Shown here one piece after another: positions 6,158 through 61,783 of a stretch of 64,000 bases of DNA. The stretch's first letter is position 1; each line of letters begins with the position of its first letter. The notes beneath the pieces were generated by a model. It was not told the DNA's origin. It did no database searches and saw only the letters and a program-made list of their open reading frames with translations. The stretch is from a virus. The stretch spans positions 1 to 64,000 of the IMG/VR virus record IMGVR_UViG_3300031576_000019. The stretch is one strand, 5' to 3'. Made by a program: the position numbers and the translations under genes.

Positions 6158-6193
6158 GTTGGACGACCTTTGCCTCCAACCTGGAGGAGGGAA

Positions 6194-6481
6194 CTACTTC
6201 TGGAAAATTTCATCGCGCAAATCCCGGATGGCCCCTAAATAGGCGCGGACATGAACAGTTGGGTCTCCCAGCGAAAAGAGTTCACTTAATTCCAACGCGC
6301 GTGGCCCGCCCTCAAACCTGAATATAACTTTTCCGTTGGGCAGGTTGGGGCTGGGCACACGCCGTGAGGGAAGCCGGTGAACTCCCGAACACACCAGAAA
6401 AGCCGCCTGGTTGACGACATTGGTTTCAAAGGCAGGCACTTCTACGACTGTAATCTTGAGAGGAAGGGAATCTGTCATCAC
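6194..6481 (-). CDS. Hypothetical protein
   Basis: 95 aa ORF, ATGA-coupled to upstream gene. Confidence 0.6.
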   Translation of the reverse strand: MMTDSLPLKITVVEVPAFETNVVNQAAFLVCSGVHRLPSRRVPSPNLPNGKVIFRFEGGPRALELSELFSLGDPTVHVRAYLGAIRDLRDEIFQK

Positions 6482-6681
6482 TGAATTTTCCCGGTGCCGG
6501 ATGTGCCGGTCGCCTTTCCGACCCGAAACTGTTCTTGCAGAAAATAGACGACCAGATTGTTCGCCAGGGCATGGTAGATACTGACGTTGTAATCGCGCTC
6601 AAAGAAGGTCGGGTCTTGTTTCAACGCTGCTTCTTCAAACTCGGCCAAGTTTCTAACCAAGTATTCCGCCAGAGTTATCAT
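6478..6681 (-). CDS. Hypothetical protein
   Basis: 67 aa ORF, translationally coupled on both sides. Confidence 0.55.
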   Translation of the reverse strand: MITLAEYLVRNLAEFEEAALKQDPTFFERDYNVSIYHALANNLVVYFLQEQFRVGKATGTSGTGKIQ

Positions 6682-6917
6682 TCGGACACCTGCAGAGAGG
6701 ACGCAACAACAAACATTGCCAACTTCCCCAGAAGTTCCTCGGCCTGAGCCAGAGTGAAACCAAACCTGCTCTGGATAACACCTAGCATCCGTTGCACCTC
6801 CAGCAGGTGGACATATTTCAAGTTGTCCATTGCATCCTGATGGGATTTGTTGATTTCACGTTGAGTCAGTAATGGGAGCGCGACCAGAACCTCGCGCTCC
6901 CCGGTTATTGTCTGCAT
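6678..6917 (-). CDS. Hypothetical protein
   Basis: 79 aa ORF after AAGGA RBS and an operator-containing promoter. Confidence 0.6.
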   Translation of the reverse strand: MQTITGEREVLVALPLLTQREINKSHQDAMDNLKYVHLLEVQRMLGVIQSRFGFTLAQAEELLGKLAMFVVASSLQVSE

Positions 6918-7081
6918 TCATGCTGTCCTTTGTGAACTATTATTCACATAACGGGGCAGGAAGTCAATCCCTTTGTTGAAGGCCCCAACTGGGTAGACGG
7001 GCCAAATCCACAGTTGTTTCATCTTTCAAGGGACGGCCTCGCCGCGTGTTACTTGCCACTTCTTGAACTGCAGAAAGAGAT

Positions 7082-7243
7082 TCATTGCTTCAGCCACCAG
7101 TCTAGGGCATCCATCGCCCTCAACTCAGGAACGAGTGTGTTACCAAATTTGCCCTGCGTGGCAAAGGCGGTCACGCGCACAAAGCACCACCCGACTAGAT
7201 CACGAGGCAATAACCACGCCAACCATTTCCAAAATTTTTCCAT
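7082..7243 (-). CDS. Hypothetical small protein
   Basis: GGAGG RBS before ATG 7243 (MEKFWKWLAW...). Confidence 0.55.
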   Translation of the reverse strand: MEKFWKWLAWLLPRDLVGWCFVRVTAFATQGKFGNTLVPELRAMDALDWWLKQ

Positions 7244-7282
7244 GTTCAGTCCTCCTGCTCGACCATCCATTGTAATTTGCTC

Positions 7283-8382: not shown

Positions 8383-8452
8383 CGCTGTGCGCTTCAACAA
8401 GGCAGGGTGCCGCCCTCACGGGTGCTAATGGGTTCGACTCCCATCACAGCGG
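8383..8452 (+). ncRNA. tRNA-like element with collapsed anticodon arm
   Basis: Acceptor stem CGCTGTG/CACAGCG, T-arm ATGGG-TTCGACT-CCCAT; middle AGGGT-GCC-GCCCT has no 7-nt loop. Confidence 0.55.
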
Positions 8453-8790
8453 CCTTTTGTTTATCTCACTCGCCTCCAAGTTGGAGGAAATGGACGGGCC
8501 AAGACGTATGCCGATGTGCTTGTCACATCTCATATCATCTTGCTCGTATTATGTCATGTATAAGAGCAATGTCAGCAAGTATTCACCTACCCACTTCGGC
8601 ACCACCAAGGTAAGCAACGATGGTGGCATGATAGCCTTTACTCTCATCACCTTGTTGGCATGTGTACTGTGTGTGCTTGTGCTCGTTGTTCTCCTGTAAT
8701 CCATCACCTATCATCATTGGCCCGCCCCACTCCCATATAGACTATATGCGTACACTGATACGCCTTAGTCGAATGAGAGTGTGTTATGTA

Positions 8791-10694: not shown

Positions 10695-10770
10695 TTCTGG
10701 AGGCAGAGTGACGCACGCTAAAAACGTGCGGTAATGCGCTGACTGGTCACAAGCCCAGTTACCTATGGAA
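10695..10770 (+). ncRNA. Twister ribozyme (permuted, type-P5-like)
   Basis: GCA-GA-GTGA, P1 CGCACG/CGTGCG, G-TAA-TGC, GCT, P4 GACTGG/CCAGTT with loop TCACAAGC; pseudoknots GTGA/TCAC and GC/GC. Confidence 0.8.
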
Positions 10771-11350: not shown

Positions 11351-11426
11351 TTCCCTCTAAGTTGGAGGGGAAGTCTGGCCTTGCCAATCCCGGCAGGGCC
11401 TTTTTGATTCCATAAGGAGATACAAG

Positions 11427-13336: not shown

Positions 13337-13412
13337 GTCCTGCTTCTATTTCCTGTCTACCTATCACTGGCCCTCCAACTTGGAGGGCCAGTTTGCTTTT
13401 AAGGAGATCGCT

Positions 13413-14213: not shown

Positions 14214-15644
14214 ATGAACATCAACAAACTGCTCAGTAATGATGAGGGCTTGATTGAGTTCTTCATGCCCGTCATTCAGGGACATGCGCTAAAGTTGCGC
14301 GATTACGCTGATGGGGTACAGGAGGGAGTGCTTCAACTCCTGCGAGCGGCAAAGTCGTTTGATGCGACCAAGGGTCCGCTCGTGCCCTATTTCGCGTTGC
14401 GCTTGATGGGGTTGCGTGACGGAGAACGCGACAAGGCCAAAGCGGGTGAACAATCGCTGGAGGCTTTGGAGGAAGACTTTGACCGCGAGTTTCCCGCAAT
14501 GGACCATCCCGACGCTGACCTTGCGGCCAGCCTCAGTCTGATAGAGGACGAAATATCGTTTGAGGCCAAGCGGTTGGATGGGTGGGCCGAGAACATACTC
14601 AACGATTTTCTCATATACACCGTGCCTACCAGTAAGGATGAACGCGACGAGAAACTAGCTTGGGCTAAACGCTTCTTTGGCCTTATTCCTTTGGTTGAGG
14701 AGGATGTGCTGACCGTCCGCTATTCCGAGCGCATTCAGATTGAGCGGAAAAAGATGGCGGGCCAAGCCTATCGTATCTTTGCCGATGATGTTGAGCCCGA
14801 GGCCGATGGCACTTGGGATTGGGACGAGGTTCAGGCCCTCAACGCCGATGGTGAACCAGATTTCCTCGAGGACTATGCCGATAACAAAACGGGCTTTGGC
14901 CAGTTCAATGTGTCTTGTACTATGTACGGGCTGTACGATGTTTACGACAGCTGTGGCAAGTGGCGCGGCATTACCAAGCGCCACCCAACCGAGTTTCGCA
15001 TGTGGACGTTGGTACCACACACAGAAATGCGCGAGATTTGGCATGCGCCCTTTGGAATAAACACCAAGCAGACAAGGGGGGCGCCCTACATCAGCCCGTA
15101 CTTCGGTACGCGAGGCGAGGACTGGTCAGATGAGGACTGGAAGGCAGAAATGGAAGAGGAAGCCGACTTTGACGAGTTCTTGGCCTATCAACCAACTCCC
15201 GAGGACGTTCGGCACCTGACCGAACGCCCCACCCTGGCCGAAGCCACCTCCAAGTTGGAGGGATTCCTCTGCAAGCTCGATGTTTATAATCGGGCCTTCG
15301 TTATGGCCACTCTAAGTGGCAAAGGGCCATCCGCTTGCTGGCAAGCCGCCAGAGATGCGGTAGCCGCCAAGAAAGCCCGCCAAGTTAACTTGGCGAAAAT
15401 TCGCAAGTGGGAGGCCGAAATGATTGAGCGTCTTCGGCCTCTGACCGTCAAGGCCGCTACCGAGACCGGTCTCGTGCTTACCACCGGCCAGAAATTGGCC
15501 TGGGAACAAGCGATTGAGTGTGCAAGGTATGTCCTCCCCGTCAGTGGCCTCCCCTTCAAGATGCTGGGAAGTATCTACCAGCACATTCATAACCCATTGG
15601 CCGACAAGTTTGTGAACGTGAAGTTGGCCGACCTGACAGTCTAA
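14214..15644 (+). CDS. Protein with sigma-70 region-2-like N-terminus and large unknown C-terminus
   Basis: DGVQEGVLQLLRAAKSFDATKGPLVPYF matches the sigma-2 pattern DLxQEGxxGLxxAxxxFDxxKG. Confidence 0.6.
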   Translation: MNINKLLSNDEGLIEFFMPVIQGHALKLRDYADGVQEGVLQLLRAAKSFDATKGPLVPYFALRLMGLRDGERDKAKAGEQSLEALEEDFDREFPAMDHPDADLAASLSLIEDEISFEAKRLDGWAENILNDFLIYTVPTSKDERDEKLAWAKRFFGLIPLVEEDVLTVRYSERIQIERKKMAGQAYRIFADDVEPEADGTWDWDEVQALNADGEPDFLEDYADNKTGFGQFNVSCTMYGLYDVYDSCGKWRGITKRHPTEFRMWTLVPHTEMREIWHAPFGINTKQTRGAPYISPYFGTRGEDWSDEDWKAEMEEEADFDEFLAYQPTPEDVRHLTERPTLAEATSKLEGFLCKLDVYNRAFVMATLSGKGPSACWQAARDAVAAKKARQVNLAKIRKWEAEMIERLRPLTVKAATETGLVLTTGQKLAWEQAIECARYVLPVSGLPFKMLGSIYQHIHNPLADKFVNVKLADLTV

Positions 15645-15698
15645 ATCCCTCCAACTTGGAGGAGAAACACAGGTGGAGGCGCTTCTTGGCCTCCACCT

Positions 15699-15728
15699 GT
15701 GAATAATCGTTCACTTTTCTGGTAGGAT
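15699..15728 (+). promoter_or_regulatory. Operator plus extended -10 promoter
   Basis: GTGAATAATCGTTCAC-ttttcTGG-TAGGAT. Confidence 0.6.
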
Positions 15729-16112: not shown

Positions 16113-16294
16113 AGTGCTCCATCTGTGGTCACGAAACCATTAAACGTGACCCACCCTACTGTACTACCTGTACTTTGGTCACCTCCAACTTGGAGGACAT
16201 GCTGAGAACCAAGGGGGGGCGGAAGTACATTGTTGAACTAGCCGAACATCTGAAAAAGGAGAAATCCGATGACAATCGACCAAGTGATTGTTGA
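16109..16294 (+). CDS. Small zinc-finger-like protein
   Basis: CSIC...CTTC. Confidence 0.55.
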   Translation: MKCSICGHETIKRDPPYCTTCTLVTSNLEDMLRTKGGRKYIVELAEHLKKEKSDDNRPSDC

Positions 16295-19332: not shown

Positions 19333-19403
19333 GTATCCACCGCACAACCTGGCGAGAGCAGGGCCTAAACCACCCTGCTCTCCTCCAACTTGGAGGAAAC
19401 CTA

Positions 19404-20082: not shown

Positions 20083-20394
20083 GGGCGTGAATTTGGTCTC
20101 GACAGGATAGGCGGGAAGTGAATTGCAGGCGGAGAAGCGCAGACCTCCTAAAATCGGCGCAACCTTTCAAGTGCTGAAGCACCCATTGCGGTGGATTCCC
20201 TGTTTGGGTTCCGCCCCGGCCAACTGGCCGAAAGCCTGTTCGCAGGCGTCTCCGTGACCGCGTAAGTGTCCGGTGGTGGAAGTCGGTCATCCCCGAAACC
20301 GACACAGATGAAGACGCTGACGGCGTACCGTCTAAGCCTGTAGGAATTTGCTTCGCAAGTGTCTTGGACGCCGGATCGTTACCGGCCACGTCCA
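20083..20394 (+). ncRNA. ssrA: tmRNA
   Basis: 5' GGGCGTGAATTTGGTCTCGAC; 3' GGACGCCGG-ATCGTTA-CCGGCCACGTCCA; acceptor stem with G3-U; tag ORF 20173-20265 AEAPIAVDSLFGFRPGQLAESLFAGVSVTA*. Confidence 0.9.
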
Positions 20395-20752
20395 CAGTTA
20401 TCCCGGCCAGCGGTGCTTTCTCGTTAGACGTTAGCCACTGTCCTCCGTCCGGGATAGAAAGAGTAGTTGGGGTTATGGCGGGCCGCGTAGGTTTTGTCCA
20501 GCCGCCGCCCAGCCCGCCCCCATTATTACTAGACAAGTATCGGGTGGAATGGAAATAGACCTCCGTAATCGAGCACATCTGGCTGGCCCGATACTTGTCC
20601 GACTTTACGACAACCCTTTAGGGGCCTGGATTGCAGAGTAAACCGCCGATACACACCCATTGAGGTTGAGGCGCGATAGAAACTCTGAGGACGAAAGGCC
20701 CCACCAACTTCTTCTAGGATTGTGGAATACGTCAGGTTCTAAGAGGCCCAAG

Positions 20753-21046
20753 ATGAAAATCGGCGTGACGATTGATGAAGTCCGACAGCAAGGCACGCAG
20801 ACCGCTTATGTGCCCTCCCGTTTGCACGGTCATAACCTTGACTTGCAACACCCCGATGTGGAGTTTGGCTTTGTTACCAGTGTCAAGTCCATCGGCGCTT
20901 TCTGTCGCTTCTGGTCCAAATTTGTTCCTGACGAACTACGGACCACAGCAAACAGTGAGATGGCCCCATTTCACAGTCTGGCGCTCCATGAGGGTCATTC
21001 GGAAGAGGCAGTGGCCAAACAGTTGAAGAAAATTATGGGCGGTTAG
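20753..21046 (+). CDS. Phage hypothetical protein
   Basis: AYVP..HPDVEFGFVTSV..FCRFWSK..LRTTANSE; stop lies within the tRNA 5' end. Confidence 0.6.
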   Translation: MKIGVTIDEVRQQGTQTAYVPSRLHGHNLDLQHPDVEFGFVTSVKSIGAFCRFWSKFVPDELRTTANSEMAPFHSLALHEGHSEEAVAKQLKKIMGG

Positions 21047-21109
21047 TTCAGTTGGGAGAACGTCTGCGCTGCAAGCAGAATGTCGTGGGTTCGAGTCCCA
21101 CATCGTCCA
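21037..21109 (+). tRNA. tRNA-Ala (TGC)
   Basis: Cloverleaf: GGGCGGT/ATCGTCC with G3-U70; anticodon arm TCTGC-GCTGCAA-GCAGA; T-arm GTGGG-TTCGAGT-CCCAC; CCA not encoded. Confidence 0.85.
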
Positions 21110-21130
21110 CATGCTTACGAAGGTAGCAAA

Positions 21131-21962: not shown

Positions 21963-21990
21963 AAACACCCTCCAACTTGGAGGGTGTTTT
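21963..21990. terminator. Hairpin between convergent genes, built on the 15-bp palindrome
   Basis: AAACACCCTCCAA-C-TTGGAGGGTGTTTT. Confidence 0.6.
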
Positions 21991-23122: not shown

Positions 23123-23206
23123 TTGCTTTGCAGGTTCTTCCTCCAAGTTGGAGGGATTTACCAAGCCCCGCGCCTCCAAAATGGGCCGGGAAAGAAAGGA
23201 AACATT

Positions 23207-25442: not shown

Positions 25443-25508
25443 TCCCTCCAAGTTGGAGGAAAACTAGTAACGGCAGGTATAGACCCTGCCGTTTTTGGAC
25501 TCTAGCCT

Positions 25509-26141
25509 ATGTCGACTATCCGCATCTCAAATGGTGGGGGCGCTTCGGCGCTCGTGTACTCCTACGCTATTTCAGTTGAGAAAGAAAAGTCGCCCATCAT
25601 TGTCTGGTTAGAGCTTGCCCCTGACCACCCCAAACAGATTGGCGCAATCTGGGCCTCACTCGTCGGGGGTGACAAAGAACTCATCCGCATCTGGGATGAA
25701 GACAAGGGTAAAACCTTTACCGCCACTGGCCTCAACCGACGGTACATCAAGATCACCGAGGAGGTTCCAACGGTCTATGCCCGCCCCCGCCCCCGCTTCA
25801 CTCGCTTGGTGGCCCCCGAGATGGTCAAGCCAGACGGAAACATTGGTAACAAGACCATGTACGTCGCTGAGTGGCGCGGCACAACCAAGAACGGGAAGTC
25901 AGTGTGCTTGCCACCCACCAAGGTCCTGGCCGCTCTGCTTGAGAACCACAGCATCTACCCAATCCGTTTGGATTGGGGCGAATATCTACTCGAACAGGCC
26001 ATTGAAGATGGACGAGCTATGCCGTTTCAGACAGGCGGGCCAGCTCCACAGGGATACACTATTTCTGCTGATACACCCTGGCGGGATTACATTGAGGCCG
26101 GCGTGAGGACTAGCTTCCTCCAACTTGGAGGTGAAAAATGA
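25509..26141 (+). CDS. Hypothetical protein upstream of MTase-helicase
   Basis: 210 aa ORF, ATGA-coupled to the HNH gene. Confidence 0.7.
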   Translation: MSTIRISNGGGASALVYSYAISVEKEKSPIIVWLELAPDHPKQIGAIWASLVGGDKELIRIWDEDKGKTFTATGLNRRYIKITEEVPTVYARPRPRFTRLVAPEMVKPDGNIGNKTMYVAEWRGTTKNGKSVCLPPTKVLAALLENHSIYPIRLDWGEYLLEQAIEDGRAMPFQTGGPAPQGYTISADTPWRDYIEAGVRTSFLQLGGEK

Positions 26142-26668
26142 GCGAAATATGGAAGCCCGTTCCGGGACACGAAAACAGATATGAAGCTTCAAGTTTTGGC
26201 AGAGTCCGTTCTCTTGTTTGTCGTAGCGGAAGACGAAAGAAACCTCTTGTGTTGCGCCCCTCAGTGTCAAAACTTGGGTACCTTAATCTCACAATAGTTC
26301 GCAACGGTTCTAAAGCCAATTCAACAGTCCACATTTTTGTTGCAACTGCTTTTCTTGGCCCTTGTCCAGTCGGGATGGAGGTGAATCACAAGGATGGCGA
26401 CAAGTCTAATAGTTGCCCTGACAATCTTGAATACCTCACACGAGGAGAAAATATCAAACATGCTTATCAGACTGGACTTCGGAAGCCTCTGCGAAGCGAG
26501 GATGTACACAAGGCAGTCCTGACATGGGAAAAGGTCCGCAAGATCCGTAGCCTGTTTGACACTGGCGAATTTTCGCAAAGCGAACTCGCTACTCAATTTG
26601 GGGTAGAAAGAACAACCATCGGTCAAGTAGTTCGTCATACGACTTGGCGAGAAAGGAGCCAAGGATGA
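26138..26668 (+). CDS. NUMOD4-HNH homing endonuclease
   Basis: EIWKPVPG..RYEASSFGRVRS; VHIFVATAF; VNHKDGDKSN..NLEY..EN; C-terminal HTH. Confidence 0.9.
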   Translation: MSEIWKPVPGHENRYEASSFGRVRSLVCRSGRRKKPLVLRPSVSKLGYLNLTIVRNGSKANSTVHIFVATAFLGPCPVGMEVNHKDGDKSNSCPDNLEYLTRGENIKHAYQTGLRKPLRSEDVHKAVLTWEKVRKIRSLFDTGEFSQSELATQFGVERTTIGQVVRHTTWRERSQG

Positions 26669-29600
26669 GATTGGCAGGCCAGAGCAAGTTGGGTTTTTAT
26701 CCAACCCCGAGTGCTACTCTAAAACTTATCCCTTCTTGGCTCTCTATTGTTCAGGAAGGAACTCGTCGTTACCTGGACCCATGTTGTGGAACGGGCGAGG
26801 CATTAGCCACCATAGAAAGGATGCGCGGTCCCGCAGAAACGTATGGAATAGAACTGTCGGACGTTCGTGAACTAGAAGCAAAAACCCGTCTCACGACTAC
26901 GATTTGTTGCGGTTACGAGTATTCCCAAATTACCGACGACACTTTTTCATTGGTACTTTTGAATCCGCCGTATGATGGCGAGGGAGACACAGGTGGTGGG
27001 GCAAGGATGGAAGAGACCTTCCTGCTCAACACCACCTCCCGCATCACACCAAGGGGTATTCTCCTTTATCTCATTCCCCACATCCGCTTGCACAATGAGA
27101 AGATTGCCCGCCACCTGGCTGGCTGGTATTCTGACCTGCGCTGTTTCAAATTTGCCAAAGAAGATTACGAGGTCTTTGACCAAATCATCTTGTTTGGCGT
27201 GCGGCGGGCCGAATATAAGGCCCCAACCGCCGAGGCCCAAAACGAAATCCTCAATATCTGGTCGGTTGGGAATCTGGTAGACCGCTACGATGAAGTAGTT
27301 GGCGAGAAGGGGAAGGCTCACCGTGTAGCTGTTCCAGCACCCATGCCCTTCTTTGTTGCTGGGCAGGGTGAGTATGCCGTCCCTGATGCGCCTCTGCGCG
27401 GGCGGCATGGGGCTCCCTTCAAATTCCAATACCTAATTGTGTCTGACGAGGACAAGATTCGTGAGTCCGAGCGGGCCGCAGGCCGACTCATCCGGGGCAA
27501 CGCTTGGCGTGACCTCACTCCGCGTCTTGAGCCACTGGTAATTGAACCAGCCATGGAGCCCAAGAAGGGCCATATCGCTATGCAGGTCAGTGGTGGTCTG
27601 CTTGGCACCAATCTCCTCAACGACCAGGGGCGCGTCATTCTCCTGAAAGGTTCGGTTATCAAGCGGTCCGTCACGAAGAAGGTAGTACAACCTGTAGACG
27701 AGGAGGGCGCGGAACCCCAGCCAGAGGAAGATGACGACAAAGAACATATGAATAAGGTAGAGATGGAGGAGCGTTTCTACACCAGTATGGCCGTGCTGTC
27801 GGAGGCCGGTGAACTCACCATTACCGAGGATGTATCGGAGGTCAAGGAACTGTTGGTCAAGCATGTGGCTCAACTGGCCGATGTGGTTCAGGCCCGAAAC
27901 CAGCCGCGCTACAGCATGAATCCTAAACCATGGGAGTGGGCTATCTTTGACAACCTCTCGCGTAGCCGACAACTACCGGGCCGAAACGAAACGGGCTTGA
28001 CCGACTTTCAGAAGCACTTGACCGTTGCAATGGGACGTTTGTGTCTGGCTGATGGGGCCGGGTTTATCAATGCGGAAATGGGAAGCGGCAAAACCACCAT
28101 TGGTATCTCTATTGCTGAATATCTCAGTGCGGCCAAGACACGCAAGAATAAAGCGCCTGTTTATCCGGTCCTGGTCGTCGGACCTGGCATTGTTACTGGT
28201 AAAGAGAACTGGCCAAAGGAAATTCCCGAGGTCATCCCTGGCGCGAAAGCCCGAGTGATTGAAGTGGGAGCGAAAGCCGCTCCCAGGCCGATGAAGATTG
28301 GACAGTATCTTTTCTCCATCTTGGGATTACATCTCAATAAGTCCGACTTTGAAGGGAAGAATGCCTACGGATGCCTTAACTTGCTCAAAAGGATAACCTC
28401 CGAGCAGAAATTGCGCGTGCCCAAGGCTATTGCTAAAGCGGTAGAGTTTTCACTGCACGAGGCCGAGAAGCGCAAGCCTATTCGCCGACGCGGAGCTACT
28501 CATCCCAATCTGCTTGATGGTCGCATAGGTGGTTTCCTGTGGCTAGGACTGGATATGCCGCGCGACCCCGCTACTGAGGATGACCGCCGCTACTCGGTCG
28601 CCCAATTTCTGGACGAGTACGCCAGTGGCGTAATGCCTCTCAAGTCCTTCGCTATTTTGTCGCACGAGACGGCCAAGCTGGGCCCAGGACGGGTGCCAGC
28701 CATCGTTGAGCGGAGCATCCTGAGTAGTAGTGACTCTATTGTGGTCTGCGCCTGTCCCATTTGTGGCACTCCGCTTCAAGATGTAGACCCTAAGACAGAG
28801 GAGAAGTTTTATATCACGCCCTCCAACTTGGAGGAGTGGATTGGCGCTAAACGCCGGTTCTGCGTGGCGCCCATGCGTTCTCATAATGACAAGGCCCATC
28901 GGGCTGAGATCGGCAAGCGGATTTGGGACCCGGATAAGGGCAAGCATGTCGTGATGGTAAACGACGAACACGACCAGCCCCATGTGTGCGGGAGTCCCCT
29001 GTTTTCGTACACCTATTACCGCCGAGAAGCGGCCGCCAGTTACATTGCCAAGAAAGCCAAGAAGAAGTTTGGCCTGATGCTAATGGACGAAATCCACAAG
29101 GCGAAGGCCAAGGGCACAGGCGTCGGGCAAACACTGACTCTGCTCAGCAACGCCATTCCCTATACCGTTGGTCTGACTGGAACTCTCTTTGGCGGATACA
29201 GCACATCCATCTTCTGGCTTCTCTATCGGCTAGCCCCGGAAGTGCGCCAAGAGTTTGGCTTCAACGACGAGCAACGGTGGGTGGAACGTTACGGGCTTAT
29301 CAAAAAGGTTTTCTATAGGGACAAGGAACTTGAGGAAGATGGTTCCTTTACCGGCAAGAAACACTTTGAAACCGTGACCGAACGGCCCGGCATCTCGCCC
29401 GCCATTGTTGGAACAGGATTGAAGTTCTGCTCCTTTAGCAGTCTCACTGACATTGGCTTGCCATTGCCTAAGTATTCGGAGGAGATTGCCCGCATTGCTC
29501 CCTCGGACGATATGAAGAAACAGTATCTTGAGGCCGACAAGGGTGTTTATGATTGGGCTATCAGCCGAATGCACGAACCGGGCGGCAAAGGTGCAATTGG

Positions 29601-31100: not shown

Positions 31101-31181
31101 TTTCCCTCCAAGTTGGAGGGATTAGTTGCTTCGCAGAGTAGCCTCATAGAAATATGAGGCTCTTTTTAGTTGGAGGTCTGT

Positions 31182-32914: not shown

Positions 32915-33310
32915 ATGAAAAACCTCGTCATTAGCAAGAGTTTTTCACATCTCTGGCCCGCGCCAGAGATTTTCGTTATCCCACTCACGGCCGAAAATGT
33001 GAGTTTCCTTAACCATCTATGTGTGAATGTGAGGCTAGATCTGACTGTGCTACTAACGATCTATCCCAGAAGCGAGTTTGTTGTTGAGGCGCGGGCCCTG
33101 TTTGCCATCCACGAAGATCGCCCAGAATCGCTGGACGAAACGTGGATGATTGTTGACCAACACGCGGAATTTCCCTCTAAGTTAGAGGGCGGCAACCAAT
33201 ATCTTGTGTGTGACCAAGAGGGCTTCACCCTCCGAGTCTATGCCGACGAGGGCGGTGACTATGCCGACTCCGAAGATATTGAGTGGAAAGTTCTGGAGCA
33301 AATCGAATGA
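32915..33310 (+). CDS. Hypothetical protein
   Basis: One of a run of ATGA-coupled small ORFs at 31847-35092. Confidence 0.55.
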   Translation: MKNLVISKSFSHLWPAPEIFVIPLTAENVSFLNHLCVNVRLDLTVLLTIYPRSEFVVEARALFAIHEDRPESLDETWMIVDQHAEFPSKLEGGNQYLVCDQEGFTLRVYADEGGDYADSEDIEWKVLEQIE

Positions 33311-35092: not shown

Positions 35093-35585
35093 CCGTAACC
35101 GGTTCTTCCTCCAAGTTGGAGGGATGATTAACCTGCTGACCGATGAAGGTGGGGTTGAACATGGCAATCTGCGGCTTGGCTTCTCCGCCCTCCGACTCAT
35201 TATTACCGATGGCCTGGTCCAGAGTGTCCTTCAAGACGGCCCAAATGAACTTAGCGGCCGCCGTAGAATTCTCGATTGGTAGTCCTTCCCCTTGGGCAAT
35301 CTTGCGTTGGTGCCGCACGATTTCGGGGAAGCCCATCACCGCCTCCAATTGAGCCGCCAAGATAATCCCCTTCTTCAACCGCCCCACCATATCCTGAACA
35401 TCTGGCTTCGCCATCCAGCGATAGTAGGTGGCGCTATCCAGCCCATGCGCTTCAAGCGCCCGTGTAAGAGTAAAGCCGGGGCGCATCGCTAATGCGACCA
35501 CCTGTAGCACCTCCTTGATACGTTTCAGGCGCGGCACATTTTCTAAATCAGCATTTTCAATCATTAGAGCGGGAGTGTTAGACAT
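35055..35585 (-). CDS. HTH protein, possible terminase small subunit
   Basis: LTRALEAHGLDSATYYRW HTH followed by helical region and acidic tail; own promoter TTCACA-17-TATACT. Confidence 0.5.
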   Translation of the reverse strand: MSNTPALMIENADLENVPRLKRIKEVLQVVALAMRPGFTLTRALEAHGLDSATYYRWMAKPDVQDMVGRLKKGIILAAQLEAVMGFPEIVRHQRKIAQGEGLPIENSTAAAKFIWAVLKDTLDQAIGNNESEGGEAKPQIAMFNPTFIGQQVNHPSNLEEEPVTVIEATPAPAPDQ

Positions 35586-40412: not shown

Positions 40413-41179
40413 GCAACCGCTTCTATCTCCATCCCAACGGACACTATGTCCCATCCGTCACGACCATCACCTCCATCTTGGCCAAGCCAAGCCTGGAACG
40501 TTGGAAACAAGAACAAGTCATCGAGGCCGCTTTTGCCCTTGGTCCCGTCAGCGCCGACATGATTCTGGATACCGCCGCCCAGAAGAGTCGGGAAGCCACC
40601 GAATTTGGGACCCAGATACATGAGGCCTTGGCCCTCCTGCATCAGAATCTGCCTTGGTGGAATCACCCTGTTTGTGACGACCCGCGTGCTATTCCGATGC
40701 TGTTAACCTATAGAGATACTTTTCTCGTTCCATCCACCGTAGTGGATGGGCACAGACAAGTCGAACAACCTGTCTTCGGTATGACACCCAATGGTTTGGG
40801 CTACGCTGGCACGCCCGACCTGGTGTGTTACCTTCTTCCCGGCGCCATTATCAAGCGCACCCCTAAGGGCAGGAACATCCAAACCCATTGTCCTCCGCTC
40901 CTGGCCTATGCCATCATTGATGTCAAAACCTCCGATGCCATCTGGCCCGACTATGGCCTCCAACTTGGAGGCTATGGAAGCATGTGCTCTATGCCTCCCA
41001 CTTATCTTCTGTCTGTGCGGATGGACAAAAGCAGCTCTACTGATCTGGAGATAATATCTTGGCCAGTGAACGAAGCGATCCAGGCCTTTCTCAACTTGGT
41101 GCAACTCTGGTATTGGCTCAATCCTAAGGCCTGCGAGAGACAGACCAGGAGAATAGCAGACAGTACCATCAGAGCATGA
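40409..41179 (+). CDS. PD-(D/E)XK exonuclease-like protein
   Basis: PSVTTI, GTQIH, YAGTPD, IIDVKTS, LQLGGY. Confidence 0.85.
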   Translation: MSNRFYLHPNGHYVPSVTTITSILAKPSLERWKQEQVIEAAFALGPVSADMILDTAAQKSREATEFGTQIHEALALLHQNLPWWNHPVCDDPRAIPMLLTYRDTFLVPSTVVDGHRQVEQPVFGMTPNGLGYAGTPDLVCYLLPGAIIKRTPKGRNIQTHCPPLLAYAIIDVKTSDAIWPDYGLQLGGYGSMCSMPPTYLLSVRMDKSSSTDLEIISWPVNEAIQAFLNLVQLWYWLNPKACERQTRRIADSTIRA

Positions 41180-41597: not shown

Positions 41598-42242
41598 ATG
41601 GCAACCGAGCGTGACCTCCAACACCAAATCAAACGCACCTTCGAGGCCCTGGGCGGGCGGGCCCGGAAACGGAATGACCTGGGCCATATGTTGCGCGCCC
41701 TGGGAAAAGCCAAGGCCGGCGCGGCACCCTCCGGCGAGCCCGACTACACGGCCACTCTGGACGGTCTGGCCTTTTATATCGAGGCCAAGGACTCCGACAG
41801 CGGAAGCGCCGGCCTCCGCTACTCGTTCAAGGAGCTCACGCCCGAACAGCGTGTCTTCCTACACCACTACGAAACATATTCATATCTCTGGCTGTGGATG
41901 GGCCAGCGCATCAATAGCGCCGAATATCCTCTTAGGGCTTGGCTAATTCCTTGGCCAAAATACTATGCGGTTGAGGTAGAGTTCCGGGAGGCCGGTCTGT
42001 TAAGCATGGCCTATCTACACCCCAAAGAACTCAAACATCGGGAGCAAGGATTATCGGCGGTAAATAAACTTGGTTCCTATGAGCTTATCTGGTTCGGTGA
42101 CGGCATCTGGCGCATTCCACCTCTACATGAACTTTGGCGCCGTTCCGCCGCGCTCCACTATCGTGAGCCCGAACGGGGCCTGGAAAGCGAAGTTCATATT
42201 CGCCGTGTTCCCTCCAAGTTGGAGGAAGTCCATGTCGGATGA
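41598..42242 (+). CDS. RecU/VRR-NUC-like Holliday junction resolvase
   Basis: PDY...FYIEAKD...LTPEQRVFL. Confidence 0.65.
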   Translation: MATERDLQHQIKRTFEALGGRARKRNDLGHMLRALGKAKAGAAPSGEPDYTATLDGLAFYIEAKDSDSGSAGLRYSFKELTPEQRVFLHHYETYSYLWLWMGQRINSAEYPLRAWLIPWPKYYAVEVEFREAGLLSMAYLHPKELKHREQGLSAVNKLGSYELIWFGDGIWRIPPLHELWRRSAALHYREPERGLESEVHIRRVPSKLEEVHVG

Positions 42243-42966: not shown

Positions 42967-43242
42967 ATCAGACCCACGCCTTTGCACTTGCAGATGACGC
43001 TCAGAACCTTGTCATTCAATCACTTCGGCTGGGAGTCATTGCCAGTTTGCCCCAGGCCATAGATATATTTCGGGAGGCCATACAGTCTTACCCCCCTGAC
43101 TGTCCACCGCCTGACCATGACTGGCCTGCAATTTGGGAGGGCCAAGCGTTACTCGTTGACCTGATTTATCAAGGCTTCACAAGCGCATAAACTGCGCGAG
43201 CTCTGTCTCCTCCAGGTTGGAGGAAAGACCGAGCCGCCCGGT

Positions 43243-43273
43243 GTGAATAATCTTTCACAACCTGTGGTATAAT
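43243..43273 (+). promoter_or_regulatory. Operator plus consensus extended -10 promoter of the replication operon
   Basis: GTGAATAATCTTTCAC-aacctgTGG-TATAAT. Confidence 0.75.
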
Positions 43274-44070: not shown

Positions 44071-45072
44071 ATGAGCATTTCACTCCTCGCAAAAGTTTTC
44101 TACATTGATCCAAAGACCTGCGATCAACCAGAGAAGTGTGTTCTCTCGGCCCTGGCTGACCATGCCAACGATGAGGGTTACTCTGTCTGGCCTAGCAATG
44201 CGCGGCTGGCCTGGAAATCCTCAATGAGCGTGCGTGGTATTCAAAAGGTGATTGACCGACTGATCGAGAAGAAGTTTGTAGAGATTGTCAGAGAGGCAAA
44301 TAATGGGCGAACAACTAACGAATATCGTCTTGTGGTTGAAGAAATTGAGGCGGTTTCGGCCAATCATAAGGATAGGTTTTTTGATGGGCCAGATGGTCTT
44401 ACCCACGAACCCCGTTCAGGGGCACCCCTGAACCCCGTTCATCCCACCCCTGAACCCCGTTCACCCGAACCATCATATAAGCCATCAAAAGAAACACCAG
44501 AAACGGAGAATGACAAAACCGGTCATTCTCCGGCTTCACATAATCTTTCACATCTGAGGCCACAGATAATGGAGGTTCCAAGCCATCTCAAGGTAAAAGA
44601 AAAGATGACCTATACAGGTCGATGCGATCAGTGTGAACAAATAATCACACAGTCTGATTTGGCCTGCCCGGGGCAAGGCTGTGGGCGTCCAGTTCAATGG
44701 ATTGGGGGTCGGACGAAGAAAGAGACGGGTAGGGTCACAAAACCCGCCTACGGCCCGCTCAGCGCGTTTACGCTCAAAGTGCTCAAGTTTGCCCAGGGGA
44801 CCGTAGACTACAAGTTTGACTGGCCGTCTCCGATGAAGGGCCAAACTTCCTCCAACTTGGAGGGACGCTTCCTATCCTTTGAACAAAGCCTGGGTGAGGC
44901 GAAAGTTATGTCAATTATCGAAAAGTGTGGGCAGGTCGGAGATAAGGGACTGGGACTCCTCAAGCACGCTATCAACTGCCTGGCGACCAATTCCGACCCG
45001 ACCGCCAGGGGCCAACGGCCAGTTGCTTCGCAGAGTCTTGAAACGAAAGGAGAAATAGATTGGGACGCTTAG
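44071..45072 (+). CDS. Replication initiator-like protein (N-terminal HTH)
   Basis: EKCVLSALADHANDEGYSVWPSNARLAWKSSMSVRGIQ..NEYRL; directly upstream of helicase. Confidence 0.8.
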   Translation: MSISLLAKVFYIDPKTCDQPEKCVLSALADHANDEGYSVWPSNARLAWKSSMSVRGIQKVIDRLIEKKFVEIVREANNGRTTNEYRLVVEEIEAVSANHKDRFFDGPDGLTHEPRSGAPLNPVHPTPEPRSPEPSYKPSKETPETENDKTGHSPASHNLSHLRPQIMEVPSHLKVKEKMTYTGRCDQCEQIITQSDLACPGQGCGRPVQWIGGRTKKETGRVTKPAYGPLSAFTLKVLKFAQGTVDYKFDWPSPMKGQTSSNLEGRFLSFEQSLGEAKVMSIIEKCGQVGDKGLGLLKHAINCLATNSDPTARGQRPVASQSLETKGEIDWDA

Positions 45073-47078: not shown

Positions 47079-47120
47079 ATAATGGTTCACTTTTGAGGTA
47101 CAATCCCTCCAAGTTGGAGG
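47075..47120 (+). promoter_or_regulatory. Operator plus -10 followed by the 15-bp palindrome
   Basis: ATGAATAATGGTTCAC-ttttgagg-TACAAT-c-CCTCCAAGTTGGAGG. Confidence 0.6.
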
Positions 47121-51111: not shown

Positions 51112-51858
51112 ATGAGCACATTCACCTCTAACTTGGAGGGAAAACTACTCGACATAATCAGCGCGACTACACCCTGGCTGGCGCCACTCATGCCAGCCTA
51201 CATGGCCTGGTACAACATGATCCACGTCTTGGAGTGGCCTCCTTTGTTGGCCTTTTTTGGGGCGACTACTATTGAATTCTTGGGCCTAAGCACCGTCCAT
51301 ACCACATTCCAGTTCTGGACGTACAACGAGGCCCGTCAGTATCGCTTCCAGACGGCCTTGGACAGCCTTACAAAGAACAAGCGTGCTAAGAAGGCCGTCC
51401 GGGGGGCATCCGGCCTTGCCAAGACGCGCCTGACGGCCTTAGCGGGGGGCTTTTACCTGACTCTCGTAATTGTGGTGAACGTAATCCTGGACTTGAAGTC
51501 ACCCCCAGAGCAGATTATAGCCAAAGTCCTGCTCTCGCTGATTTCCATTGTGGCCGCTATTACGCTAGCTCTGCGCGCTCAACACAAGCGTCAGTTGGCC
51601 GAAGTGGAACAGTTGCGAGAGAACCGTAGAGTTGCAAGGGTGGTTTCACGGAAACCAAATGAACCAGTAATAGTTGCACCCCAACGGGCCAAAGACAAAG
51701 TGCGGGATTACTTGGCGGGGAACCCCAACATGGCCCATAGACCCACCGAATTGGCTCGTCTTCTGGGCCTCAGTGAGGGTACGGTTAAGTCGGCTATTCA
51801 TAGAATGGAAAAAGTAAACAACAATGATGCGCTAATCCCTTCTGTAATCGTGAGTTGA
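51112..51858 (+). CDS. Membrane protein with C-terminal HTH
   Basis: About 4 TM segments; PTELARLLGLSEGTVKSAI. Confidence 0.7.
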   Translation: MSTFTSNLEGKLLDIISATTPWLAPLMPAYMAWYNMIHVLEWPPLLAFFGATTIEFLGLSTVHTTFQFWTYNEARQYRFQTALDSLTKNKRAKKAVRGASGLAKTRLTALAGGFYLTLVIVVNVILDLKSPPEQIIAKVLLSLISIVAAITLALRAQHKRQLAEVEQLRENRRVARVVSRKPNEPVIVAPQRAKDKVRDYLAGNPNMAHRPTELARLLGLSEGTVKSAIHRMEKVNNNDALIPSVIVS

Positions 51859-54805: not shown

Positions 54806-54865
54806 CTCGAATCTCCTCCAACTTGGAGGGAATCTAGCACAAGAGTCCTAAAACGCAAAACCGGC

Positions 54866-55186
54866 CTATTCAGCCGGTTGATAGACTTGCATATTCGGTC
54901 GAACTGTCCAGTCAGGGGACGCAAGTTGGGATACCCAAATCCTATTGCCCACATAGACATGGCGGGAGATGTAGGCCAGGTCAGCCAACGGCGAGCCAAA
55001 TGTTTCTAGTTTCCTGACAAACTCGTTCTGGCGCAGACCGATCTGCAGGAGTAGATCGCTAGCCACCTTCCACTCGCCTTGCGAACACAATCCCTCGCCC
55101 TCCATCTCCTTGCGTGAAATAGGCAACCGGGCGTGCGAACGAAACACCATTGCCTCCAATACCCGATCCAACCGATTAGCATCCAT
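54866..55186 (-). CDS. Hypothetical protein upstream of integrase
   Basis: 106 aa, AAGGAG RBS, TATAAT upstream. Confidence 0.6.
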   Translation of the reverse strand: MDANRLDRVLEAMVFRSHARLPISRKEMEGEGLCSQGEWKVASDLLLQIGLRQNEFVRKLETFGSPLADLAYISRHVYVGNRIWVSQLASPDWTVRPNMQVYQPAE

Positions 55187-59098: not shown

Positions 59099-59113
59099 GG
59101 ATGAATTTCTGGC

Positions 59114-59830
59114 CTATCGCCAGATCGGCCACAACGTTCCCATGTCGGACAACGAAATCGGAATGTCCCACACAGCCACCTGCCCAATAAAGCCATCCCA
59201 GACGCTGTTACTGGCTTGACGACAGCCAAGATTACAGCGCAAGGTGCTCAGACTACCGGTATACGCCGCCGTAATAGCTGCTGTTCCCTCTACTCGACCA
59301 TTGAAAATGGCCTGCATCAGCAAGCGCGAGAAGGACCAAATCATCCCCATCATAAAGGGCGTATCCCAAGAACCCATATTCCCCCGCACCACTTGCGCCG
59401 AACCCGCGCCTCCAACATAGTTCCAATTCACTTGGGCCAAGGCGTCGTCACCTGTCATAAATACACCGTTGTTACTGTCTACTTCAATCCGTAGAAGATT
59501 CTTGGACAGACCACTGCTCCAGACCGCAGTGCTGGAGGGTTTGGCAAAAACAACCGCTGCGCCCTCCTGGCCATTGAATATCGTGTTGAGGGCTGAGGAA
59601 TAGACATTGATCTGACTCGCTGAACCGCCCCCGGCAAACGATGCACAGCGCCGTCCGTCCCCGAGAGTAGGTTGGTCAAGGGTGACAGATGTGGCAACAG
59701 CATCGGCTAGGTGACCGGTGCAATCCTTGATAGCCGTTCCTGCCCGCTCCTCACATACCCAATGTGCAATGCGATGGCCAGGAGCAATAGTCGCAATCCG
59801 GTCATAGAGTTCGTAATTTCTATTGGGCAT
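59114..59830 (-). CDS. LamG/concanavalin-like virion protein
   Basis: AHWVCEE..GT..D; WDGFIGQVAVWD. Confidence 0.65.
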   Translation of the reverse strand: MPNRNYELYDRIATIAPGHRIAHWVCEERAGTAIKDCTGHLADAVATSVTLDQPTLGDGRRCASFAGGGSASQINVYSSALNTIFNGQEGAAVVFAKPSSTAVWSSGLSKNLLRIEVDSNNGVFMTGDDALAQVNWNYVGGAGSAQVVRGNMGSWDTPFMMGMIWSFSRLLMQAIFNGRVEGTAAITAAYTGSLSTLRCNLGCRQASNSVWDGFIGQVAVWDIPISLSDMGTLWPIWR

Positions 59831-60838
59831 TTAGGCTTTGGGTCGCTTGAAGATTAGACGGAACTCAAACACCTCTGCCGAGACGGGCACATAGGCATTT
59901 CGCACCACGAGCAGTCCGTATATGTCTTGCAGACTTCCAGTACACTTGAGGGGAAGACTGAGACCCTGAACGGGGAAGATCACGTTTCCGTCCGCGCCCG
60001 CCGTAGCATCCCCCACATAGTAAGCGTTGAGTGGGATCACCCCAATCAGAGTGGCCAGCTCGGCATCCGTGGGTGTAAACAAGGCGTTGTCATTGTCGGG
60101 TGTCACCGAGGCGTCAAACAGCCAAAGCTCAAATTGGCCCTTGAGTGTTTGGTTTGCGCCGTCAATCAAGATGGCCCCAACAACTTCATTAGATCCGGCC
60201 GGAAGCGGCGTCACACCCGTAAAGGTAATTTTTACTGGCGCACTGGTGCTGTTGGTGACAGCATCTCCCGCCGCATAGGTGGTTGTATTGGCTGGCCGAG
60301 TAAAGCTAGCGTTTACCGAGGGTGTATCACCCTCGTAGATGTAGAGCCGATTGAGAGCATCAAAGATGGGCAGAGTATATTCACCATCAGCCGATGGCAA
60401 CGATGCTGGCACGTCTTTACGGACACCCATAACCGCCACCCCTTTATCAGTTGACGCATGGGCGGAATCCTCCGTGTGCATGATGTCTTCATCACTGGCG
60501 AGTGTGACAGCTAGTGCATTCGCTTTGGTTTTCTGCCCCAGACTGACAGGAAGAAGCGCAATCAGACTGGTAATACGTTGAGCGATGCGTTGCAGGCGCC
60601 CATTAAGGCCGCTGGAAGCTGTGTCGGAAGCTGGAGCCGTTTCAGTCAGTGCGCCCGTGATGGCGCCAATGGCAACATCGGTTACAGTCTTAGCATCATC
60701 CGTGCCCGAAAATTCAACCAGGCCCACTGGCGCAATATGAACACTCGCATCACCCGAATAAGTTACTTGCCGGGTAGCGATCTTGCTCCCGGAGGGTACG
60801 GTTGAGACAGTCGTTTGGGTCGTAAGATTATCAGCCAC
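59831..60838 (-). CDS. Putative virion structural protein
   Basis: Thr/Ala/Ser-rich; TRPANTTTYAAGDAV; EDSAHASTDKG. Confidence 0.6.
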   Translation of the reverse strand: MADNLTTQTTVSTVPSGSKIATRQVTYSGDASVHIAPVGLVEFSGTDDAKTVTDVAIGAITGALTETAPASDTASSGLNGRLQRIAQRITSLIALLPVSLGQKTKANALAVTLASDEDIMHTEDSAHASTDKGVAVMGVRKDVPASLPSADGEYTLPIFDALNRLYIYEGDTPSVNASFTRPANTTTYAAGDAVTNSTSAPVKITFTGVTPLPAGSNEVVGAILIDGANQTLKGQFELWLFDASVTPDNDNALFTPTDAELATLIGVIPLNAYYVGDATAGADGNVIFPVQGLSLPLKCTGSLQDIYGLLVVRNAYVPVSAEVFEFRLIFKRPKA

Positions 60839-60850
60839 AGAACACTTCCT

Positions 60851-61783
60851 TTACACAAATACGGATGCGGACACCCAATAGTCAGGGGTCGCACTAATTT
60901 GAATCCAGCCATCCAGCGTGATACGCGAGATCAGACATTCCCAAGTGACGTTTCGTAGGACATTGATTTCTTTTCCATGCGGCTTGTCACAAACCGGGAA
61001 ATTTTGAAGAATAGGCTTTCGGCGCTTGCCAGACAGGAAGGCCCACTTGGGTGGTAGACCTCCACGCGCATTCATATCAACATTGCCCGCAATCCCAAGC
61101 ACACGCCCGCCAGCTGAATACTGCCAGGTATGCCACTTATTCCATTGGCCAAAGAGACTGGGCCCGATTTCATTGTAGCCCGCTACCCACAGTGGGAAGG
61201 CCGAGAAGTCCTCACCTCCAGTACAGTAGTTCCAAGCCCAGCCATTCGTGTACAAGATAGGTTGAGTGCGCCCGTCCAGCCATTCCTCTAGGTGAAATAG
61301 CGCCAGACCAAGTTCTTTAGTGTATGCGCGTTGGTCAATCGTCTCATAACCCTCACCAACCTTGCGAGGCTCCACATCCCATACCGGAGGCAACTCACCC
61401 CTATCCCCCTCCAAGTTGGAGGAAAACCAGTCGGCTTGGGTGACGCCTTTTGTGCCGGCAATATGATAGTGATACGCCTGTCGGGGGATACCTACTCGTT
61501 TAGCCTCAGCCCAGTTGCGCTTAAATTGGGTGTCCAGGCCCGTAATGCCCAGCGTGGCCCGGATAGCGACAAACGCTGGATTAGCTTGGGCCAGTTTGTC
61601 CCAATCAATCACACCCTGATGCCTTGATACATCCAGGCCAAGTCCTATTCTGGGTGGCAGAACAATCGGGGCAGGCGGCGAAATAATCGGAGGCACCGGA
61701 ACCAGCCTCAGAATGGCATAGCCCTCTTGAAAAGCATCGTAGGGAACATCAATGACGGGAATATCAGGGGGAAAGTCAGGCAT
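60851..61783 (-). CDS. GH25 endolysin (muramidase)
   Basis: GLDVSRHQG.IDW, AYHY, WDVE, LWVAGY, WQYS, VDMN; start reset to ATG 61783 behind AAGGAG. Confidence 0.9.
   Translation of the reverse strand: MPDFPPDIPVIDVPYDAFQEGYAILRLVPVPPIISPPAPIVLPPRIGLGLDVSRHQGVIDWDKLAQANPAFVAIRATLGITGLDTQFKRNWAEAKRVGIPRQAYHYHIAGTKGVTQADWFSSNLEGDRGELPPVWDVEPRKVGEGYETIDQRAYTKELGLALFHLEEWLDGRTQPILYTNGWAWNYCTGGEDFSAFPLWVAGYNEIGPSLFGQWNKWHTWQYSAGGRVLGIAGNVDMNARGGLPPKWAFLSGKRRKPILQNFPVCDKPHGKEINVLRNVTWECLISRITLDGWIQISATPDYWVSASVFV

Follow-up and report, generated by a model that had tools for sequence, protein, structure and literature searches.

The first 64 kb (64,000 nucleotides, hereafter the window) of the 90,773-bp virus record IMGVR_UViG_3300031576_000019 of IMG/VR carries many scattered copies of a 15-bp palindrome, CCTCCAASTTGGAGG. 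Sequence comparisons strongly support the view that selection acts on the DNA of this motif itself, and we favour, with middling confidence, the interpretation that its copies are putative sites in duplex DNA for a sequence-specific protein of two-fold symmetry, i.e., a dimer. The two ends of the record overlap by 127 bp, a sign that the assembly is circular, with 90,646 unique bases. Judging from its gene content it is a temperate tailed phage, called temperate because it encodes a serine integrase. We label this phage G000, and use other G and L labels for other genomes, contigs or loci.

An earlier reading made from the sequence alone (hereafter the sequence-only reading) had reported 19 exact and 5 variant copies. 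We recovered the 19 exact matches at the same coordinates, and found none in 100 dinucleotide-preserving shuffles of the window. When up to two mismatches are allowed, the window has 24 matches, for 0.2 expected. The same reading proposed to count the motif in the full contig against a Markov background. In the whole circular genome (90.6 kb) there are 25 exact copies and 5 variants, 30 copies altogether, whereas a third-order Markov model trained on the phage genome predicts 0.0007 exact copies. One further match with two mismatches, at 85526, is not palindromic, is probably due to chance, and is not counted among the 30. The palindrome is by a wide margin the commonest long word of the genome, and its half-site TTGGAGG is only mildly frequent outside palindromes (21 copies, both strands together). 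The set is sharp, with 25 exact copies for 4 that differ at one position. Of the six variant half-sites, four have C5>T and two have A7>G, so that variation is confined to the position pairs 5/11 and 7/9, respectively. Both arms are altered in the copy at 33174, which is still a palindrome. These patterns had been described before and were seen again in our recount, and the longer arms noted at 13372 and 21969 measure 12 and 14 pairs, respectively. We also verified that 25 nucleotides are identical between 23133-23157 and 35101-35125 (seven on the left, the motif, and three on the right). This identity is far above chance for 30 sites and may result from gene conversion between sites or reveal an extended site.

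The copies in genes show that the constraint lies in the nucleotides. The motif is read as S[N/K]LE 13 times and as LQ[L/V]GG three times, and never in the third frame, PP[S/T]WR; this preference fits sites that settle where the protein tolerates the residues. The frames given in the sequence-only reading are correct, both for S[N/K]LE in the sigma-like protein (15247), the helicase (28820), the replication initiator (44849), the helix-turn-helix (HTH) or terS-like protein (51125), and the endolysin (61408), and for LQLGG in the nuclease (40957) and in the open reading frame (ORF) starting at 25509 (26117). Called ORFs include 14 occurrences of S[N/K]LE, for 0.84 expected from amino-acid frequencies. 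Twelve of these are spelled TCC AAS TTG GAG and the other two have the spelling of a listed variant, while codon usage would yield the motif spelling in about 1% of the cases. Given the codon spelling and the expected counts, we rejected an explanation at the level of the peptide.

Homologous proteins lead to the same conclusion. When the GH25 lysin is aligned with its homologues, the column of SNLE contains NSLG, SVVG or ETVK, and in the alignment of the exonuclease, LQLGG stands in place of the conserved LQLAA or LQLSA. Both alignments are free of gaps, which implies that the copies arose by substitution and not by insertion. We considered a 15-bp mobile unit making a 6-bp target duplication (ctatgg at 40957, gaatct at 54815), and rejected it because the alignments show no indel; the ctatgg repeat at 40957 encodes YG...YG around a conserved LQLxxY motif and is a coincidence at the protein level. 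Hence, the codon choice, the lack of indels relative to homologues, and the absence of the motif from homologous proteins bear out the suggestion of the sequence-only reading that selection acts on DNA.

The symmetry of the sites is informative. Read on the sense strand, 16 copies are centred on C and 14 on G, none on A or T, and the AAT and AAA centres, which would be synonymous in frame, are yet unused. When the 60 half-sites are folded together, three extra positions are biased (yyyCCTCCAA, 75-85% pyrimidine), the 5' flank being pyrimidine-rich and the 3' flank purine-rich. Left and right flanks can form Watson-Crick pairs in 11, 13, and 13 of the 30 copies, for 10.1, 11.9, and 10.2 in shuffles; there is therefore no base-pair covariation between flanks above that of shuffles. 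We found no conserved flanking or cleavage tetranucleotide around the copies, the flanks being merely biased towards pyrimidines or purines. Since the palindrome is perfect and shows no strand bias, it has no orientation relative to transcription.

The core of the motif is conserved in distant relatives of the phage. The exact 15-mer was found in 79 other IMG/VR contigs, always in a single copy, which is about the level expected by chance. Two of them, G001 and G002, are relatives, with major capsid proteins (MCP) about 50% identical to that of the phage and homologues of its portal and TerL. A profile built from the three MCPs retrieved G106 (50.6 kb, of the G001 lineage), G105 (23 kb), which has the closest MCP (56% identity), and twelve metagenome contigs. 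The 11-bp core TCCAASTTGGA, expected 0.01-0.05 times per relative contig, is present 13 times in G106, 9 times in G001 (24 kb), twice in G002, and 5, 2, 1, 6, 1, and 1 times in L243-L247 and L249, with a density of 5-6 copies in 14-16 kb in L243 and L246. It is absent from G105 and from L239 (17 kb). The contigs carrying the motif are found in all four main clades of the MCP tree. In relatives with lower GC content the outer bases vary (TTTCC.., TCTCC.., CTTCC..), and keep to pyrimidines in the left arm and to purines in the right. Positions 2/14 of the G106 copies form five Watson-Crick, four G-T, and four C-A combinations, without covariation. The hairpins of relatives fold at -4.2 and -2.4 kcal/mol and are no more stable than shuffles, compared with -8.9 kcal/mol for the G000 form (RNA fold). 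These results show that relatives conserve the sequence and not the structure.

Individual sites turn over between relatives. The motifs in the scaffold-like protein are 18 residues apart in G000 and G001, and a motif position common to G001 and G002 in the protein following the MCP is missing in G000. The genes shared by G000 and G106 (BLASTP, E<0.05), the latter being around 61% complete, are all structural, and no gene separates motif-bearing from motif-free contigs among the available fragments of the structural module. Other searches brought no additional relatives: a megablast of 12 kb of the phage against phage records had no match, a helicase-based search of IMG/VR returned none, and neither did a scan for TTTCCAASTTGGAAA. 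A PDB sequence search with the exonuclease gave nothing. Another word, TTCCNGGAA, is modestly enriched in G106 (L228-L230), L241 (4 copies in 6.7 kb), L243, and L246, and is lacking in G000. Its flanks are not conserved and its enrichment may reflect codon or peptide bias.

Within the phage genome, inspection of the 30 copies placed 14 in intergenic regions, 4 in the first or last codons of genes, and 12 deep in genes. Intergenic DNA and the 30 nucleotides around gene boundaries represent 17% of the genome but contain 18 of the 30 sites (60%). The region of early genes has 23 sites, spaced by 2.2 ± 1.2 kb (coefficient of variation of 0.55), which is more even than random (P = 0.003), and its motif density is 2.8 times higher. 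Copies are located at the tip of terminator-like hairpins at 13372, 21969, and 71751 (genome coordinate). These three and the copy at 25445 (minus strand) are the only ones that fit an intrinsic terminator, since the remaining copies lack a T-run. From 6 to 64 kb, seven of the stronger hairpins of terminator-like form either are the motif itself or lie at most 60 nt from it. Three copies (15648, 25445, and 43209) directly follow a stop codon and precede a terminator-like hairpin or a promoter. At 19382, 26117, 42211, 47106, and 54815 a start codon follows the GGAGG of the motif after 6-12 nt, and at 6173 after 15 nt, for about 0.4 such cases expected. A translational operator that sequesters the Shine-Dalgarno sequence would need a start codon 5-13 nt downstream of the GGAGG arm, an arrangement seen in only 5-6 of the 30 copies.

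From this symmetry and placement we infer that a dimeric protein may bind the copies. Each monomer would read one half-site, yyyCCTCCAA, on either side of the central C:G pair. Sites, created by point substitutions and kept by selection on DNA, would settle where they cost least, i.e., just past stop codons, on existing GGAGG ribosome-binding sites, and in segments that tolerate S-N/K-L-E. The bound protein would then act along the whole genome and not at one promoter. Its most probable role would be that of an orientation-independent roadblock or insulator where operons end and where a few transcripts begin (47106, and 54815 ahead of the integrase gene), akin to stoperator-type silencing in which a bound protein blocks transcription elongation, although it could about equally well organise the DNA. 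The binder may be encoded by the phage, outside the shared structural module, or by the host, and the latter deserves serious consideration, as the core is also present in phages whose early genes are unrelated. We prefer recognition of the duplex to that of a hairpin because relatives conserve the sequence, flanks do not covary, and the central C:G pair is accepted either way, and also because there is no strand preference and copies flank terminators on either side and occupy the interior of genes as well.

Several observations weigh against this interpretation. No candidate binder stood out. PF02195 (ParB_N) had no match at E<=0.1 in G000, G106, G105, and G002, in a search at the Pfam level only, and the purely structural gene set common to G000 and the partial G106 leaves no conserved phage binder in sight. 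The HTH proteins encoded at 35055-35585 and 51112-51858 resemble viral clusters of HTH or terminase-small-subunit-like proteins, and neither is linked to the motif. The excess of exact copies over one-off copies is sharper than in most sets of repressor operators. The change at 33174 is compensatory and the single changes at 5/11 would keep a G-U/G-T wobble (+ strand), both of which a hairpin would lead one to expect, even if the statistics are weak (around P = 0.1). The palindrome is also part of hairpin-rich composites in a bacterial genome rich in Y1 transposases (see below). Finally, a roadblock has no obvious use at the 12 copies deep in genes, nor at 15648, 25445, and 43209. The dimeric-protein site put forward in the sequence-only reading is the best-supported explanation in terms of symmetry and duplex evidence, but the phage HTH proteins that it named as possible binders have no detectable counterpart in the motif-bearing relative G106.

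We scanned 185,579 species, with one genome each, for the palindrome. Among the matches listed there were single copies, and only one metagenome-assembled genome (MAG) appeared twice, that of an uncultured Fimbriimonas sp., CAMFIS01 (G004, 4 Mb). Five exact copies, each reading CCCCTCCAASTTGGAGGGG, are present in this MAG, for 0.007 expected, together with a sixth copy that has the variant T9>C, of the same type as in the phage. For comparison, 100 other genomes of its family have one copy in total. The count in a candidate host that the sequence-only reading had proposed reveals an excess, but at a density about 200 times below that of the phage. Its suggestion that the motif might be a host signature like HIP1 or an uptake sequence finds no support in single copies among the matches listed and 5 copies in 4 Mb.

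The copies of G004 are located between ordinary, mostly convergent, chromosomal genes, with neighbours encoding a GH3 glycosidase, PriA, a nucleoside hydrolase, MacB/FtsX, and a beta-lactamase-fold protein. Each is within a small intergenic composite together with a second element, GGGGTGGATG...CATCCACCCCGTCGATCC, which occurs only about 7 times in G004, 5 of them next to the palindrome. The composite consists of the palindrome, which has 9-bp arms and makes one of its hairpins, then a stem that covaries (CCGTTCG/CGAACGG vs CCCGTTTGC/GCAAACGGG), and then a second hairpin ending in GTCGATCC. Rfam gave no family for the composite repeats. PF01797 (Y1_Tnp) has 26 matches in G004, and three of the four Y1 genes that we inspected are each flanked by a pair of hairpins of their own (19-22 nt, in low copy number; L232, L234, L235). 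These hairpins, e.g. CCTAGGGCGCAGCCCTAGG, have a format like that of the palindrome, with arms of 8-10 bp, a loop of 2-4 nt, and CC...GG. The composite may be a non-autonomous element of the IS200/IS605 type. A profile search for relatives of the MCP found no match in 401 genomes of Armatimonadota, the phylum to which G004 belongs, and the tmRNA gene of the phage had no match in G004, which is a candidate host of the phage only.

These composites bring to mind a hairpin in single-stranded DNA or RNA, with a 6-bp stem and an A-S-T/U triloop, that would be recognised by a structure-specific factor (an HUH Y1 enzyme of the IS200/RAYT type, a host protein that binds REP elements, or an RNA-binding protein) or would itself be an element for 3' ends or stability. 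The stability of the G000 form as RNA, the three copies at the tips of terminator-like hairpins, and the composite context in G004, with its covarying neighbour stem and its Y1_Tnp genes flanked by hairpins of the same format, are all consistent with it, as are variants that fall in the would-be loop (7/9), keep a wobble (5/11), or compensate each other (33174). We nevertheless regard it as unlikely. There is no Y1_Tnp (PF01797) in G000 or G106, no conserved cleavage tetranucleotide, and no covariation of the flanks. The hairpin is marginal in relatives, where the outer pairs are broken at the rate of chance while their pyrimidine/purine identity stays, and the central base has no strand preference. 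Elements of the REP type are intergenic, unlike the 12 phage copies in the interior of genes. Somewhat less probable still is that the chromosomal composites are bound by a host factor and that the phage lineage wrote the site of this factor into its own genomes, for instance so that a topology, nucleoid or repair factor is recruited or a defence protein titrated. This would account for a core found in all four MCP clades even though G000 and G106 share no detectable non-structural gene, and for the excess of exact copies between ordinary chromosomal genes in G004. The lack of the motif in G105 and L239, two longer relatives, is what one expects if their host does not have the factor. However, the link to G004 as a host is unsupported by the searches for the MCP and the tmRNA, the density in G004 is far below that of the phage, and a conserved host regulon is unlikely because the 100 other genomes of the family hold a single copy. 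The relatives are also fragments, so a binder encoded by the phages may be unsampled. Slightly more doubtful again is a mimicry in which a whole lineage of phages that otherwise look unrelated would have copied, by point mutation and at 200 times its density in the host, the head of a REP/PATE-like repeat of a Fimbriimonas-type chromosome rich in Y1 transposases, and would thereby recruit or titrate the host protein that acts on this repeat.

The phage encodes many enzymes that act on DNA, and the palindrome could be the target of its C5 cytosine methylase, of the DUF6094 methyltransferase-helicase, or of a nicking or homing endonuclease, with repair bias or self-marking keeping it exact. The sharpness of the set and a central S typical of type II recognition sequences agree with such a target, and 4 of the 6 variant half-sites are C>T at position 5, as would result from the deamination of methylated cytosine. 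The phage also has the enzymes to choose from, with two methyltransferase domains, an HNH/NUMOD4 endonuclease, a second HNH, and a GIY-YIG-like protein. Yet, phages normally avoid such targets or are neutral to them, and do not enrich them 10,000-fold. Neither the even spacing nor the placement at gene boundaries is explained, 15-21 bp far exceeds known methylase sites, and the G106 fragment has the core without a homologue of these enzymes, which makes this explanation very improbable. We give even less credit to a translational operator, in which CCTCC would pair with the GGAGG of the ribosome-binding site in the mRNA and gate the translation of the downstream gene. It draws on the copies with GGAGG shortly before a start codon, well in excess of expectation, and on some G106 copies that are also ahead of an ATG. 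But the copies so placed are 5-6 in 30, with 12 deep in genes, those at 15648, 25445, and 43209 are upstream of terminators or promoters and outside the downstream leader, and the arm in relatives is often GGAAA or GGAAG, with a weak hairpin. A simpler explanation for the overlap with ribosome-binding sites is that an existing GGAGG already supplies five bases of the half-site. The same placement and the same arms and hairpins of relatives led us to reject a general Shine-Dalgarno role.

The sites of the window, and the composites of G004, are listed with their surroundings below. Early and replication genes are oriented rightward, from about 7 to 53 kb, and late genes leftward, from about 6.9 kb across the assembly junction to 53 kb. 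The late genes encode a TerL-like protein (4287-5840), the portal, the MCP, a tape-measure-like protein of 2793 aa, fibres, the GH25 lysin, and the serine integrase. Among the early genes are those of the sigma-like protein, SSB, the HNH/NUMOD4 endonuclease, the DUF6094 methyltransferase-helicase, RadC, DUF5131, the C5 cytosine methylase (37159-38988), the exonuclease, the replication initiator, a DnaB-like helicase, a primase, and others; further enzyme-like proteins are the second HNH and the GIY-YIG-like protein.

Positions and surroundings of the palindrome in the window, and of the composite repeats in the Fimbriimonas MAG
Feature	Position	Peptide read	Surroundings
Variant (A7>G, sense strand)	6173..6187		Intergenic, between two leftward genes; stop about 10 nt before, next ATG 15 nt on
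Exact	8473..8487		Poorly coding stretch; about 30 nt past a tRNA-like T-arm
Variant (C5>T)	11354..11368		Divergent intergenic region; terminator-like hairpin 11377-11400 begins 9 nt later
Exact	13372..13386		Top of a 12-pair terminator-like hairpin, then a T-rich tail
Exact	15247..15261	SKLE	Interior of sigma-like gene, residue 353/484
Exact	15648..15662		4 nt past the stop of the sigma-like gene; then a 13-pair hairpin and a GTGAA-N6-TTCAC promoter
Exact	16182..16196	SNLE	Within a 61-aa zinc-ribbon-like ORF
Exact	19382..19396		Intergenic; GGAGG 7 nt ahead of ATG at 19404
Exact	21969..21983		Top of a 14-pair hairpin with T-run, convergent genes; bidirectional terminator-like
Exact	23140..23154		Intergenic; 5 nt past polar motif AGTTGCTTTGCAGG; likely SSB start about 55 nt on
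Exact	25445..25459		2 nt past a stop codon; then terminator-like hairpin 25469-25493
Exact	26117..26131	LQLGG	Final codons of ORF 25509-26141; GGAGG 6 nt ahead of HNH/NUMOD4 endonuclease ATG
Exact	28820..28834	SNLE	Interior of methyltransferase-helicase gene, residue 726/1295
Exact	31105..31119		Intergenic; then polar motif and terminator-like hairpin 31140-31161
Double variant CCTCTAAGTTAGAGG	33174..33188	SKLE	Palindromic; interior of ORF 32867-33310
Exact	35108..35122		End of a rightward gene converging with leftward HTH gene 35055-35585
Exact	40957..40971	LQLGG	PD-(D/E)XK-type exonuclease gene
Exact	42211..42225	SKLE	End of ORF 41598-42242; GGAGG 6 nt ahead of ATG at 42239
Variant (A7>G)	43209..43223		18 nt past a stop; 17 nt ahead of a GTGAA-N6-TTCAC/TATAAT promoter
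Exact	44849..44863	SNLE	Replication-initiator gene, residue 280/353
Exact	47106..47120		Begins 2 nt past a TACAAT -10 box, across the likely transcript start; ATG 47133 12 nt on
Variant (C5>T)	51125..51139		Codons 5-9 of HTH protein gene 51112-51858
Exact	54815..54829		9 nt upstream of the serine-integrase ATG, after terminator-like hairpin 54859-54879
Exact	61408..61422	SNLE	GH25 endolysin gene
G004 composites	L213:1280-1460, L214:2832-3012, L210:2720-3200 (-), L215:1106-1286, L089:2400-2580 (-)

Other features of the window deserve mention. A free-standing homing-type endonuclease of the HNH_3/NUMOD4 kind, at 26138-26668 (+), is directly ahead of the gene at 26644-30531 (+), which encodes a 1295-aa fusion of the DUF6094 methyltransferase and the helicase. 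A tmRNA gene was identified at 20083-20397 (+) with Rfam (RF00023, 77.6 bits) and missed by ARAGORN, and a tRNA-Ala(TGC) gene is present at 21037-21110 (+). A Twister-P5 ribozyme at 10702-10758 (+) has a score of 49.5 bits, above the Rfam gathering score. The tRNA-like T-arm near the second copy, GGTTCGACTCC, is at 8430-8450, where coding potential is doubtful and no tRNA was called. A polar motif, AGTTGCTTCGCAGA, has 10 copies (<=2 mismatches) between 12969 and 45034, on the + strand only and all upstream of genes, and two of them, at 23121 and 31124, directly adjoin the palindrome. A second palindrome, GTGAA-N6-TTCAC, has 11 copies in the window for 0.08 expected. Its copies (for example 15700-15716, 43241-43256, and 47073-47088) overlap the -35 regions of promoters with good -10 boxes, and by this arrangement it resembles a class II activator or repressor site.

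The operators of KorB in plasmid RK2 (OB), the parS sites of ParB, and the centromere sites of phage N15 are exact palindromes of 13-16 bp spread over a replicon, some of them in or beside genes, and are bound by dimers that act at a distance. The phage differs from these systems in its higher copy number and in that it integrates, without plasmid maintenance, and ParB_N was not detected by Pfam in the phage or three relatives. Its array also evokes elements of the REP/BIME-RAYT type and others derived from IS200/IS605, which are short GC-capped palindromes at the 3' ends of genes, and to which the G004 composite is similar. However, the phage has no Y1 transposase, flanking tetranucleotide, or second hairpin, its copies arose by substitution, and 40% of them are in coding sequence.

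The closest published case that we found, and by analogy an array of the same kind, is that of the Cluster O mycobacteriophages (Corndog and relatives), which have a 17-bp dyad repeat, TGTTCGG-N3-CCGAACA (PMC4351075). It is present in 34 invariant copies and 3 that differ at one position, of which around one third are in coding regions, without orientation, mostly away from promoters, and more densely in the non-structural part of the genome (PMC4351075). The authors reported its function as not known and predicted a dimeric binder (PMC4351075), and we found no later literature resolving the function of this repeat. Both arrays have some 30 or more copies in a genome of 70-90 kb, invariant arms with few one-off variants, a mix of intergenic and intragenic sites without orientation, and conservation among related phages. 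They differ in that the phage studied here has 7-bp arms and one central base instead of three, is temperate, with an integrase, while Cluster O phages are not obviously so, shares the core with very divergent relatives, and has its exact word also in a bacterial MAG. The stoperators of Cluster A phages are another point of comparison. They are asymmetric 13-bp sites, oriented relative to transcription and bound by monomers of an L5 gp71-type repressor, which stops elongation and silences the prophage (PMC9283540). As in the phage, there are dozens of near-identical sites across the genome of a temperate phage, also away from promoters. The site described here is instead a perfect dyad without orientation, and none of the HTH proteins of the phage is linked to it. 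Our array is therefore not a member of the stoperator family, whose sites are asymmetric, oriented, and bound by monomers. A literature search for the sequence of the palindrome itself returned only primers and unrelated matches.

Exact palindromes dispersed through phage genomes have thus been described before, in Cluster O in 2015. This case adds that the core is kept in phages with nothing but the structural module in common, which restricts the possible locations of the gene of the binder. At the outer positions, the bases follow the base composition but stay pyrimidines and purines that do not pair, which favours recognition of the duplex and provides a half-site that can be tested. The exact word in the composites of a bacterial MAG points to a candidate host and to a candidate partner on the host side. 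If the binder is found, it would explain a recurrent and strongly selected feature of phage genomes, and would provide a very specific pair of DNA and protein with around 30 natural sites.

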